A stretch of DNA of 6,934 bases, from IMG/VR virus record IMGVR_UViG_2681813271_000015. One strand, written 5' to 3'. Source of the DNA: a virus. Lineage: Duplodnaviria > Heunggongvirae > Uroviricota > Caudoviricetes. Position 1 is the first letter of the stretch; every line of letters begins with the position of its first letter. The translations under genes were made by a program, and so were the position numbers. Positions 1 to 6,934 of the stretch are shown piece by piece. The notes beneath the pieces were generated by a model, which saw only the letters and a program-made list of their open reading frames with translations, was not told the origin of the DNA and ran no database searches.

Positions 1-981
1 TTATAACGTCACTCCGCCTTTTAGTGGATTCAGAGCGACGGCATTTTGCAGATAGTCAGGCGCAAGGTGCGCATAGGCCATCGTCTGCTGAATGCTCGCA
101 TGTCCCAGAATCTGTTGCAGTGCGATTATATTGCCCCCATTCATCATGAAATGGCTTGCGAATGTATGCCGCAGGATGTGGGTTGCCTGATTGGGTGGTA
201 TATCAGGTTTCACTCTGCGTAAAATCCCGCAAAATTTCTCATAATCAACTTTGAATAATTTGGCGCTGGCCTCCTCTTTAACTTTTTTCTCCAGTTCCTC
301 AGAAATCGGCACGGTTCGCTTTTTACCGTTTTTGGTTTTCAGGAAGGTAACCCTGCAATTTGTAATCTGTGCTGGTTTTAGCGTGGCAACTTCCGTCCAT
401 CTTCCTCCAGTGCTCAGACATAAAAGCGCGACAAGTAAGTCATCACCAGCCAAAACATTTAACAGTTTTTCGATTTCTGCTTTTTCCAGGAACGTCATTT
501 CAGGGTTGGCCTCCGCCAGTGGCGGCAGTCCGTGAATTGGGTGTTGCCCGGAAAATTCATCCAATTGAATTAATTTTGTGAACATGCCGGATAATCTGTA
601 CATGTCACGGTTTATCGTTGCGGCACTGATACCATCACGTAGTCGCATGGAACGATAATCCATCAAAGCCCTTTTGCTCATCCTGCTCACTGGTATATCA
701 CCTATGCCGCTGATGGTTTTGAGTAGATGATTAAACTCTTTTGTTCCATGCTCGTGGTTTTGCCCGTGATATTTCCACCAGATGTCCAGCAACTCACTCA
801 AAGTCCGGCGGTCTGCTCGCTGGCCTCCCCATTCTTTCTGACTGGCATTGGCGATTGTGTATCGCTCAAATGCTAGTGCTTCAGCTTTTCTTTCGAATTT
901 CCTGCGGATGCGTTTTCCGTCGCGACCGCGAGGTCTAATGTCCACTTCATAGCGACCATCATCGAGCTTCTTAATTGCCAT
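1..981 (-). CDS. int: P2-family tyrosine integrase (site-specific recombinase)
   Basis: Minus-strand ORF ending at TAA (window positions 3-1). Translation carries tyrosine-recombinase catalytic signatures near the C-terminus (..ATHILRHTFASHF.. and ..QQTMAYAHL..) and the N-terminus MAIKKLDDGRYEVDIRP resembles P2 Int as I recall it. Start chosen at ATG 981 (MAIKKL...) because a GGAGGG Shine-Dalgarno lies about 9 nt upstream on the minus strand; the ORF-track start at 1011 has no SD. The stop is at the window edge, so the att site is off-window. Confidence 0.9.
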   Translation of the reverse strand: MAIKKLDDGRYEVDIRPRGRDGKRIRRKFERKAEALAFERYTIANASQKEWGGQRADRRTLSELLDIWWKYHGQNHEHGTKEFNHLLKTISGIGDIPVSRMSKRALMDYRSMRLRDGISAATINRDMYRLSGMFTKLIQLDEFSGQHPIHGLPPLAEANPEMTFLEKAEIEKLLNVLAGDDLLVALLCLSTGGRWTEVATLKPAQITNCRVTFLKTKNGKKRTVPISEELEKKVKEEASAKLFKVDYEKFCGILRRVKPDIPPNQATHILRHTFASHFMMNGGNIIALQQILGHASIQQTMAYAHLAPDYLQNAVALNPLKGGVTL

Positions 982-1040
982 AAGAAAGCCCTCCGGCGCT
1001 GTATTCACCATCTTGGTAGCAAATGGTGAAAATGTAATCT

Positions 1041-1403
1041 TTATATAGNNNNNNNNNNNNNNNNNNNNNNNNNNNNNNNNNNNNNNNNNNNNNNNNNNNN
1101 NNNNNNNNNNNNNNNNNNNNNNNNNNNNNNNNNNNNNNNNNNNNNNNNNNNNNNNNNNNNNNNNNNNNNNNNNNNNNNNNNNNNNNNNNNNNNNNNNNNN
1201 NNNNNNNNNNNNNNNNNNNNNNNNNNNNNNNNNNNNNNNNNNNNNNNNNNNNNNNNNNNNNNNNNNNNNNNNNNNNNNNNNNNNNNNNNNNNNNNNNNNN
1301 NNNNNNNNNNNNNNNNNNNNNNNNNNNNNNNNNNTTCACAGAATTTTGATTGGCTTAGCCCTTCAGCCTCACGCAAGGCCTTAATCTTTTCGCTTAATTT
1401 CAT
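1041..1403 (-). CDS. C: C-type immunity repressor (HTH), 3' end hidden in N-masked gap
   Basis: Only 1335-1403 is readable: ATG at 1403, giving MKLSEKIKALREAEGLSQSKFCE, an N-terminus typical of a small HTH repressor that P2 C also has. Position (between int and cox, divergent from cox) matches the P2 C gene. P2 C is about 99 aa from memory, so the true stop is probably near 1100 inside the gap; the 1041 end is only the ORF-track maximum and is not trustworthy. Confidence 0.65.
   Translation of the reverse strand: MKLSEKIKALREAEGLSQSKFCEXXXXXXXXXXXXXXXXXXXXXXXXXXXXXXXXXXXXXXXXXXXXXXXXXXXXXXXXXXXXXXXXXXXXXXXXXXXXXXXXXXXXXXXXXXXXXXXXI
1049..1334. other. Masked/unknown sequence (run of 286 N)
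   Basis: Continuous N run seen directly in the sequence; it covers the 3' part of the repressor gene and the repressor-int junction. Confidence 1.
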
Positions 1404-1524
1404 TTGACATGGTGCCTATATAGGGACTAAATTCCCTCAAAACTGGAACCTATATAGGTTCCATTGATTTGAGAATAAACCAGCGTCTAAACGGTTTTGA
1501 GTGGTTTAGAAAGGGCTGGATCCT
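1404..1524. promoter_or_regulatory. Early control region: candidate Pe promoter, candidate operator palindromes, Pc expected on the opposite strand
   Basis: Consensus -35 TTGACA at 1404-1409, with TAAATT at 1428-1433 (18-bp spacer) as a candidate -10 reading toward cox. Two direct copies of the self-complementary 10-mer CCTATATAGG at 1415-1424 and 1449-1458; the second extends to a perfect 18-bp palindrome GGAACCTATATAGGTTCC (1445-1462). The copies flank the candidate -10, which is the P2-type operator layout. Exact Pc elements on the minus strand could not be pinned down. Confidence 0.5.
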
Positions 1525-1812
1525 ATGAGGGTACCATATATGGACGCTGAAAATTATGTGATTCAGTATCCGCTTGATGCGGTTCATGTGGATAAATTTG
1601 CTGATTTATTAGGGAAGCCAAAGACAGCCGTCAGTGAAATGGTGAAGGCAAATAAATTACCAATTATTGAATTGCGTGATCCTTGCAAACCGAAGGCTCG
1701 TGCCGGTGAAAAATGGGTTTTCATTCCTGAGTTTAATCGCGCTGTACGTGAGGCGTTTTATAACCGACCGGTTGAACAGCGTGATGCATGGCTTTTGTGG
1801 ATGGGGTTGTGA
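1525..1812 (+). CDS. cox: Cox-like excisionase / early-to-lysogenic switch protein
   Basis: First gene of the rightward operon, about 95 aa; C-terminal ...RDAWLLWMGL resembles the P2 Cox C-terminus as I recall it. AAGGG about 9 nt upstream of ATG 1525; alternative start ATG 1540 (MDAENY...) has GAGGG upstream. Stop TGA at 1810-1812. Confidence 0.8.
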   Translation: MRVPYMDAENYVIQYPLDAVHVDKFADLLGKPKTAVSEMVKANKLPIIELRDPCKPKARAGEKWVFIPEFNRAVREAFYNRPVEQRDAWLLWMGL

Positions 1813-5941: not shown

Positions 5942-6934
5942 ATGACTGTAAAGGTGATAGACCTTTTTTGTGGTGCTGGCGGATTAACTCATGGTTTGCA
6001 GCTTGCGGGGCTTGATGTCGTTGCAGGCATTGACCTTGAGGGGGAATGTAGGTTTCCCTATGAAAGAAACAATAAATCTAAGTTTATTGAGCAAGATATC
6101 GCTAAAGTAACAAAAGAGGAACTGCTGAGGCTTTATGGTGATGCGTCTGTAAAAGTATTGGCAGGATGCGCACCTTGCCAACCTTTTTCAAAATATACTC
6201 AAGGAAAAGATAAGGCTGATGATAAAAAATGGCCTCTTCTTTATGAGTTCGAACGTTTAATTCGCGAAGTATCTCCAGAAATCGTAACAATGGAGAACGT
6301 TCCTGATGTAACTAAACATAAAGTTTATAATGATTTTTATAATTCATTGTTAAAGTTGGGCTATTATGTTTGGGCGTCTAAGATTGATTGTGTCGAATAT
6401 GGAATCCCACAAAACCGTTCCCGTCATGTATTGTTGGCCTCAAAATTGGGGGCGATTGAGTTAGTAAAACGTGACGATGTTATTTTGAAAACAGTTAGAG
6501 ATGCAATAGGAAATCTTCCTCCATTAGAAGATGGCCAAACAGATCCAAATGATATATTACATAGAGCCAGTAAATTAAATCCGATTAATAAAAAAAGAAT
6601 TATACACTCTGTTCCTGGTGGTACATGGAAGGACTGGCCGAAAGAGTTGGTTGCCGCTTGTCATATGAAATCCAGCGGTAAAGGGTATGCTAGTGTATAT
6701 GGGCGCATGTCTTGGGATAAGCCAAGTCCAACAATTACAACTCTTTGTTATGGTTTCGGGAATGGGCGTTTTGGACATCCANNNNNNNNNNNNNNNNNNN
6801 NNNNNNNNGGACATCCAGAACAGCATAGAGCGATTTCTCTTAGAGAGGCTGCTTTATTGCAAACTTTCCCGATGGATTATATTTTTGTAGAAGACAAAAA
6901 CAAGTTTGTTATAAGAAGTATTGGGAAAATGATA
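5942..6934 (+). CDS. DNA (cytosine-5)-methyltransferase, 3'-partial (continues beyond the window); not in supplied ORF track
   Basis: Read directly from the frame starting at 5942: MTVKVIDLFCGAGGLTHG... gives motif I FxGxGG (5966-5983), motif IV PCQ with catalytic Cys codon TGC at 6176-6178, motif VI ENV (6293-6301), motif VIII QNRSR (6410-6424), a ...RMSWDKPSPTITT block, and after the N gap motif X ...RAISLREAALLQTFPMDYIF (6827-6883). No in-frame stop to the window end (331 codons). The frame is preserved across the 27-N gap only if the gap length is real. Confidence 0.88.
   Translation, partial: MTVKVIDLFCGAGGLTHGLQLAGLDVVAGIDLEGECRFPYERNNKSKFIEQDIAKVTKEELLRLYGDASVKVLAGCAPCQPFSKYTQGKDKADDKKWPLLYEFERLIREVSPEIVTMENVPDVTKHKVYNDFYNSLLKLGYYVWASKIDCVEYGIPQNRSRHVLLASKLGAIELVKRDDVILKTVRDAIGNLPPLEDGQTDPNDILHRASKLNPINKKRIIHSVPGGTWKDWPKELVAACHMKSSGKGYASVYGRMSWDKPSPTITTLCYGFGNGRFGHPXXXXXXXXXGHPEQHRAISLREAALLQTFPMDYIFVEDKNKFVIRSIGKMI
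6782..6808. other. Masked/unknown sequence (27 N) inside the methyltransferase gene
   Basis: N run seen directly; flanked on both sides by the identical 9-mer GGACATCCA (6773-6781 and 6809-6817). Confidence 1.

Follow-up and report, generated by a model that had tools for sequence, protein, structure and literature searches.

As of 2007, operators for C repressors had been located only in phages P2, P2 Hy dis and WΦ (PMC1904268). In P2, the C half-sites are 8 bp long, 22 bp apart, and lie around the -10 element. Those of P2 Hy dis are also 8 bp long, separated by 26 bp, and lie around the -35 element. For WΦ, experiments set the half-sites at 10 bp, 34 bp apart, around the -10 element (PMC1904268). 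The WΦ O1 sequence has been given as TATTGGTGAC (PMC1904263). Experiments with WΦ also showed that a single unit suffices for a C dimer to bind, that repression in vivo requires both, and that the spacing tolerates a loss of 6 or 10 bp. The P2 repressor is unable to bind a single unit. It is a symmetric dimer (PDB 2XCJ) and resembles proteins that bind palindromes; Massad et al. likened it structurally to C.Esp1396I and P22 c2-type proteins, and proposed that one dimer occupies each half-site, with only one subunit reading the sequence (PMC2995052).

The DNA analysed here, which we call the window, is the whole 6,934-nucleotide stretch. Its open reading frames and Pfam matches indicate a P2-like (Peduovirus) prophage, of which the window carries the left-hand end of the early region; judged by sequence, the prophage is of the L-413C immunity type. 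The features, with candidate operators labelled O1 and O2, are as follows.

Positions 1-1011, minus strand: integrase.
Positions 1335-1403, minus strand: visible 5' part of the immunity repressor gene C, 23 codons, MKLSEKIKALREAEGLSQSKFCE (from the list of open reading frames).
Positions 1404-1409, plus strand: -35 element of the early promoter Pe, TTGACA (promoter scan; the CAT-TTGACA junction is also found in WΦ and P2, and the P2 record annotates it as the Pe -35).
Positions 1411-1428, no strand: candidate O1, GGTGCC-TATATA-GGGACT, an imperfect 18-bp palindrome (7/9 pairs) with its 10-mer core at 1415-1424.
Positions 1428-1433, plus strand: Pe -10 element, TAAATT (promoter scan, 18-nt spacer; aligns with TATATT of WΦ).
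Positions 1445-1462, no strand: candidate O2, GGAACC-TATATA-GGTTCC, a perfect 18-bp palindrome with its 10-mer core at 1449-1458.
Positions 1525-1812, plus strand: cox, first gene of the Pe-controlled early operon (Pfam Phage_Cox, E 1.2e-23).
After cox, in order: orf78, B, orf80-83, A, then the C5 cytosine methylase.
Positions 5942-6934: C5 cytosine DNA methylase (Pfam PF00145, E 8e-41).

Note that the cox start is annotated at either 1525 or the ATG at 1540 in related records (L-413C, KC618326). The methylase sits in the variable 'TO' cargo slot that follows replication gene A; elsewhere, this slot holds cdt toxin genes (KC618326) or a Fic-like gene (R18C). The window seems to derive from a draft assembly, since it contains two runs of N, one with duplicated flanks. 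The first, at 1050-1334, masks the remainder of the C gene body. This run is ~58 nt longer than the homologous stretch of L-413C and KC618326, so the C gene of the window may not be intact. The second (6782-6808, 27 N) has GGACATCC duplicated on its flanks, like an assembly gap.

For the repressor we turned to relatives with an identical control region, where C is a protein of 97 amino acids (WP_000777029.1). The part of the C N-terminus visible in the window is identical, and the flanking DNA 100% identical, in KC618326, P24B2 and 314 E. coli genomes. The protein aligns end to end with P2 C (PDB 2XCJ/2L49, E 1.9e-21, residues 3-97) and matches Pfam HTH_3. Its identity is 56% with WΦ C and 43% with P2 C.

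The sequence-only reading had noted two copies of the 10-mer CCTATATAGG, 34 bp apart, with an 18-bp palindrome around the second. It had placed them in the control region between the repressor and cox, bracketing the -10 element of a rightward promoter whose -35 element abuts the repressor start. All of these details were borne out. Exact copies are found at 1415-1424 and 1449-1458, with centres at 1419.5 and 1453.5, and the second is contained in the perfect palindrome GGAACCTATATAGGTTCC (1445-1462). To the left is the N-terminus of C, encoded leftward, and to the right is cox. The trinucleotide CAT at 1401-1403 is the minus-strand repressor start codon, and TTGACA (1404-1409) follows directly. 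Our promoter scan joined this hexamer, across an 18-nt spacer, to TAAATT at 1428-1433, which is between the copies; together, the two elements have 10 of 12 matches to the consensus. The first copy is also within a palindrome, the imperfect GGTGCCTATATAGGGACT (1411-1428, or 1412-1427; 7/9 pairs), that was absent from the earlier reading. Each site has the pattern GGnnCC-TATATA-GGnnCC, where CCTATATAGG is made up of the inner CC, the TATATA centre and the inner GG. Candidate O1 spans the Pe spacer as far as the first base of the -10 element, and candidate O2 falls at approximately +5 to +22 relative to the inferred start of Pe transcription.

In shuffles of the 121-nt C-cox intergenic region, preserving mononucleotide composition, an exact non-overlapping repeat of at least 10 nt occurred 83 times in 20,000. 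A chance test across the whole window (2 matches found with up to 2 mismatches, versus 1.67 expected) was uninformative, since loose matches were counted. In the 31.2-kb genome of phage KC618326, of the same class, these are the only two sites matching CCTATATAGG with at most one mismatch, or even the 7-mer CCTATAT, and no distal operator copies of the 186 type were found. A third candidate site, GGATCCTATGAGGGTACC (1518-1535), overlaps the start of cox; it has 13 of 18 positions in common with O2 and is 73 bp from the O2 centre. We consider that it is probably not a class-specific operator, since part of this stretch is also conserved in WΦ, whose operators differ. Separately, a 15-nt direct repeat (TTTTGATTGGCTTAG and TTTTGAGTGGTTTAG, 87% identical) occurs at 1344-1358 and 1495-1509; one copy is within the repressor gene and the other is where the leftward promoter Pc, or Cox sites, would be expected.

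We compared this arrangement with the systems described above, as the sequence-only reading had proposed, and WΦ emerged as the direct precedent. In the WΦ sequence, CAT-TTGACA is followed by two copies of TATTGGTGAC, 34 bp apart. Hence, like the window, WΦ has a C start codon abutting the Pe TTGACA, two 10-bp units with centres 34 bp apart on either side of the -10 element, and a C protein of 97 amino acids. The suggestion that the palindromic units might signify a different repressor-operator geometry was not supported, since WΦ has the same layout. The units themselves differ: the WΦ sequence is TATTGGTGAC, rather than CCTATATAGG, and is not palindromic. The WΦ immunity class is defined by the half-site TATTGGTGAC and by C proteins with 95% identity or more within the class; with a core of CCTATATAGG and 56% identity in C, the window shares geometry alone.

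With P2, the window shares the switch architecture, the repressor family, and repeats that flank the Pe -10 element. Two repeats around this element in the C-cox region, and a leftward P2 C homologue of ~100 amino acids with a helix-turn-helix, are as expected for a Pe operator of the P2 type. Of the converging promoters that such a switch should have, Pe was found, along with cox, and Pc was absent from our consensus promoter scan. The P2 units differ in being 8 bp long, non-palindromic (GTTTAGAT) and 22 bp apart. The CCTATATAGG core is unrelated to GTTTAGAT and, with only 43% identity between the C proteins, immunity is almost certainly distinct from that of P2, as had been supposed. The trait of non-palindromic direct repeats is not shared by the window: although the copies are repeated directly, each forms a perfect 10-bp palindrome within a 16-18-bp palindrome or quasi-palindrome. 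This trait is a description of the three studied members rather than of function.

We put at about 0.85 the probability that the CCTATATAGG copies form the cores of the C operators O1 and O2 of Pe, in a P2-like prophage of the L-413C type. This reading is based on the WΦ layout, the P2 C homologue, the uniqueness of the sites, their conservation in prophages, mutations in lytic isolates, and covariation with helix 3 of the repressor. So understood, the operator is, on sequence grounds, an ordinary early operator, belonging to a P2-like immunity type that is common, with a geometry already known from WΦ. The dyad symmetry within each site adds a variation of modest interest, and the established picture of the P2-type switch is unchanged.

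A perfect palindrome might also act as RNA. If so, O2 would form a hairpin of 18-20 nt, in either the Pe leader or a converging leftward transcript, and serve as a terminator, attenuator or stabiliser. Our scan did call positions 1444-1463, together with TTGATTTGAG, terminator-like, and the predicted folding energies are -11.5 kcal/mol for the plus strand (z -3.96) and -12.5 kcal/mol for the minus strand (z -2.5). However, such folding is a property of any perfect DNA palindrome, and the U tract, TTGATTTGAG, is weak. Folding of the first copy is not significant (z -1.6), and this copy is upstream of the inferred transcript start. Furthermore, the equivalent of O2 in both WΦ and a sister class considered below is not self-complementary, yet its position is unchanged, and a hairpin leaves covariation with the repressor helix unexplained. 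We regard this explanation as improbable.

Read as C operators, the two sites bear comparison with better-known palindromic systems. Sites for C.Esp1396I and lambdoid repressors, such as P22 c2, are also dyad symmetric, with arms about one helical turn apart, and are bound by two neighbouring dimers. The centre of such sites is probably read indirectly, as in the class to which the window belongs. The differences are that C.Esp1396I sites are 15 bp apart, compared to 34 bp here, that the window has no third operator, and that C has no C-terminal oligomerisation or cleavage domain. In the narrow sense, C.Esp1396I and the lambdoid repressors also belong to protein families different from that of C. 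Phage 186 is, like the window, one of the Peduoviridae; its lytic and lysogenic promoters converge, as would be expected here, and its CI protein recognises inverted repeats. Conversely, 186 CI is a two-domain protein of 196 amino acids that assembles into a wheel and also acts through distal flanking sites. The P2-type C protein of 97 amino acids, and the lack of further copies in 31.2 kb, set the window apart from the 186-type switch.

Conservation in prophages is extensive. Positions 1335-1560 are 100% identical in several sequenced phages, including KC618326, P24B2 and vB_YpM_50, and 98.7% identical in Yersinia phage L-413C. Among 5,426 complete E. coli genomes, 420 have a match with at least 99% identity, which is single copy and chromosomal in every case. 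Over an 80-bp core, 314 of the 420 prophages are identical and 80 differ only at position 1433; a different single change is present in no more than 26, and two changes in one. The prophage variants inspected (at 1410, 1414, 1432, 1433, 1442 and 1485) are all outside the 10-mers; this check covered sampled alleles, with up to 26 E. coli variants falling outside individual inspection. Similarly, among 35 IMG/VR contigs of the same class, changes in the 10-mers were found only in the contig of phage R18C itself.

R18C is one of two lytic isolates in the class. Its authors described R18C as a virulent P2-like phage (PMC6823313); note that 'virulent' is their description, not the outcome of a lysogen test. 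The other, L-413C, is a lytic clear-plaque mutant derived from a temperate phage (PMC2893161; PMC3448106). Both encode a wild-type C protein. Over ~1 kb, the sole differences between R18C and the reference prophage are 1423 G>T, in O1, and 1449 C>T, in O2. Over 226 bp, L-413C differs only at 1415 (O1), 1432 (T>C, in the -10 element) and 1461 (in an O2 arm, just outside the 10-mer). Of the phages and prophages compared, these two lytic isolates are the only ones with changes in or beside both sites. The four site changes fall at positions 5, 6, 5 and 2 of the GGnnCC arms, all of which are conserved in the comparison below; we estimate, roughly, a joint chance of ~3.5e-4 for such placement. The prophage variant at 1414 falls on arm position 4, which is free. 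One change per site fits the rule from WΦ and P2, where both half-sites must be mutated for repression to be lost. If operator function is confirmed, paired operator mutations would explain the lytic habit of both R18C and L-413C, and so provide a testable reason for the escape of two useful lytic phages from repression. The first infects Citrobacter rodentium and Shigella sonnei, and the second is used in plague diagnostics. The cause of the clear plaques of L-413C may, of course, be elsewhere in its genome, for which the genome paper is reportedly Garcia et al. 2008. The pattern also suggests a design for virulent P2-like phages, with one conserved-arm change per site.

Operator cores and recognition helices covary across the family. 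We compared the first ~90 nt past the C start at 80 C-repressor loci from different species (L054-L133). Cores of the form C(C/T)ATAT(A/G)G, as in the window, accompany a helix 3 of the form x-S-T-x-K-K-Y-E. Among them are loci from Enterobacter, Hafnia, Dryocola and three Pseudomonas species, with C identities of 51-61% (51-56% for Pseudomonas). The WΦ-like helix, A-L-G-T-x-K-N-Y-E, is found with ..TGAC cores, and helix S-E-S-T-F-R-K-Y-E with TGTTCC-N6-GGAACA sites. In C of the window's class, helix 3 is PLSTLKKYE, compared to ALGTVKNYE in WΦ C. Since these residues differ, the two classes are expected to be heteroimmune. Sites in relatives with the same core are spaced by 24, 25, 29, 33 or 34 bp, and this range is in line with the tolerance of WΦ repression to shortened spacing.

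The comparison also bears on the idea that a protein other than C, either Cox or a host factor, binds the repeats, or that they are extra -10-like promoter elements. Each copy does contain TATATA and, according to annotation of the P2 record, Cox is also active in the P2 intergenic region. The same record, however, has O1 and O2 flanking the Pe -10 element, with the Cox-repressed Pc further to the right. None of the TATATA cores had an acceptable -35 partner in our scan, and the site core follows helix 3 of C. Loci from Enterobacter, Hafnia and Dryocola (L069, L072 and L073) also count against it. They have the same core and helix type, with sites 29 or 33 bp apart, but their first rightward gene encodes a protein of 114-115 amino acids that matches no Pfam family and does not resemble Cox. 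The lytic-side regulator thus seems to have been replaced at these loci. Retention of both site and helix type, without a Cox-like gene, points to C as the protein that binds, and we consider the idea of other binders or promoter elements very unlikely indeed.

Whether the palindromes matter to the repressor is a separate question. For loci sharing the helix type, we compiled both arms of each site and obtained the half-site GG-n-n-CC-TAT, with conservation at positions 1, 2, 5 and 6, while 3 and 4 vary freely. Paired dyad-symmetric sites, at p<=0.01, were found at 12 loci of the family, compared to ~0.8 expected. At other loci, the sites are purely direct repeats (WΦ, L023/L055, L066, L083 and L089) or are mutually inverted (L061, L074 and L078). 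Since sites in this family may be direct repeats, mutually inverted repeats or palindromes present twice, the 'direct repeat' rule, which came from studies of P2, P2 Hy dis and WΦ, does not, on these sequences, hold generally.

A sister class (L023, L055 and L039) has a helix 3 in which a single residue is changed (Gly37 to Thr). Here, the operator region has a 15-bp direct repeat, ATGGAACCTATATGT, with copies 33 bp apart; this keeps GGAACCTATAT, but the right arms are degenerate (L023/L055 sites: GGAACCTATATGT..). Recall that the sequence-only reading had tied the palindromic repeat unit to a distinct immunity. The palindromy is significant and recurs in the family. As the source of the distinct immunity, it did not hold up, because the sister class has non-palindromic repeats that share the left half.

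The sister class also lends weight to a reading in which the sites are C operators but their palindromy has no function; one subunit would read the left part, GGAACCTATAT, and the right halves would be incidental. The WΦ and P2 sites, with no significant dyad symmetry, are consistent with this, as is the model of Massad et al., with one specific and one less specific subunit (PMC2995052). Several observations run counter to it. The best pair of 18-bp windows in the intergenic region has 16 of 18 complementary pairs (7/9 in O1 and 9/9 in O2), a score reached in none of 3,000 mononucleotide shuffles. Next to this stands the excess of dyad-symmetric pairs across the family. Moreover, right-arm positions are conserved in the helix group (GG at 1-2 and CC at 5-6, both arms counted), and two of the four site mutations in lytic phages (1423 and 1461) are in right arms. 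Functionless palindromy is, in our judgement, quite possible, though we lean against it.

The other view of the palindromes, for which we would offer a little less than even odds, is that the recognition unit is the 18-bp dyad site, read by both subunits, in this class and in a wider subfamily of P2-type C repressors that extends to Pseudomonas. Non-palindromic direct repeats, held up as the hallmark of P2 C recognition, would then be derived by decay of one arm. The dyad symmetry of each site suggests that one symmetric C dimer would bind there, with both subunits probably making equivalent contacts to the outer GG and inner CC of each arm, around an A/T-rich, bendable centre. The case for a symmetric binding mode is weakened by L023/L055, where right arms are degenerate despite the one-residue difference in the helix, which fits the one-subunit model for P2. 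If the dyad site is indeed the unit, it would resolve how a symmetric dimer reads an asymmetric site.

For the C operators as a whole, we envisage the following mechanism. One C dimer would occupy each 18-bp GGnnCC-TATATA-GGnnCC site. At O1, the dimer would lie over the spacer of Pe and reach the edge of its -10 element; at O2, a second would cover the transcript start. The two dimers, about three helical turns apart, would probably bind cooperatively and bend the DNA, as do WΦ C and P2 C. Bound in this way, they would exclude RNA polymerase from Pe, so that cox and the replication genes would be silent. Silencing of Pe would, in turn, confer immunity to superinfecting phages of the same type.

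The immunity type is present in ~8% of complete E. coli genomes, and the location of the operator would tell which prophages exclude which incoming P2-like phages. P2 C has been presented as unusual, in that a symmetric dimer acts on direct repeats; a close relative with clean palindromes would be a good subject for structural work. The class is also suited to study of how direct, inverted and palindromic sites interconvert within one repressor family. Full-text searching with CCTATATAGG and the 18-mer returned no phage paper, although these repeats, or the operator changes of L-413C, may have been described earlier. Karlsson et al. 2006 reportedly defined immunity classes I-VII, and probably gave the repeats of each.

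Some variants in the region merit separate mention. The change 1433 T>C, in 80 of the 420 E. coli prophages, alters the last T of the Pe -10 element (TAAATT to TAAATC), and one genome has 1432 T>C and 1433 T>C together. From its position, 1433 T>C is predicted to weaken the lytic promoter, and prophages with this change may no longer be inducible. The change 1485 G>A is common (9 of 35 viral contigs, FSL SP-004, HQ103 and many E. coli genomes). With it, the minus strand at 1485-1492 becomes GTTTAGAT, the same as the P2 operator half-site; this match, in the Pc/Cox region, is probably a coincidence. Finally, in Yersinia phage HQ103 (L135, MZ420230.2 23866-24051), the repressor is annotated with a length of 186 nt, rather than 294, and the operator region is intact except for position 1485. 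Going by this annotation, HQ103 may be a repressor-truncation variant.
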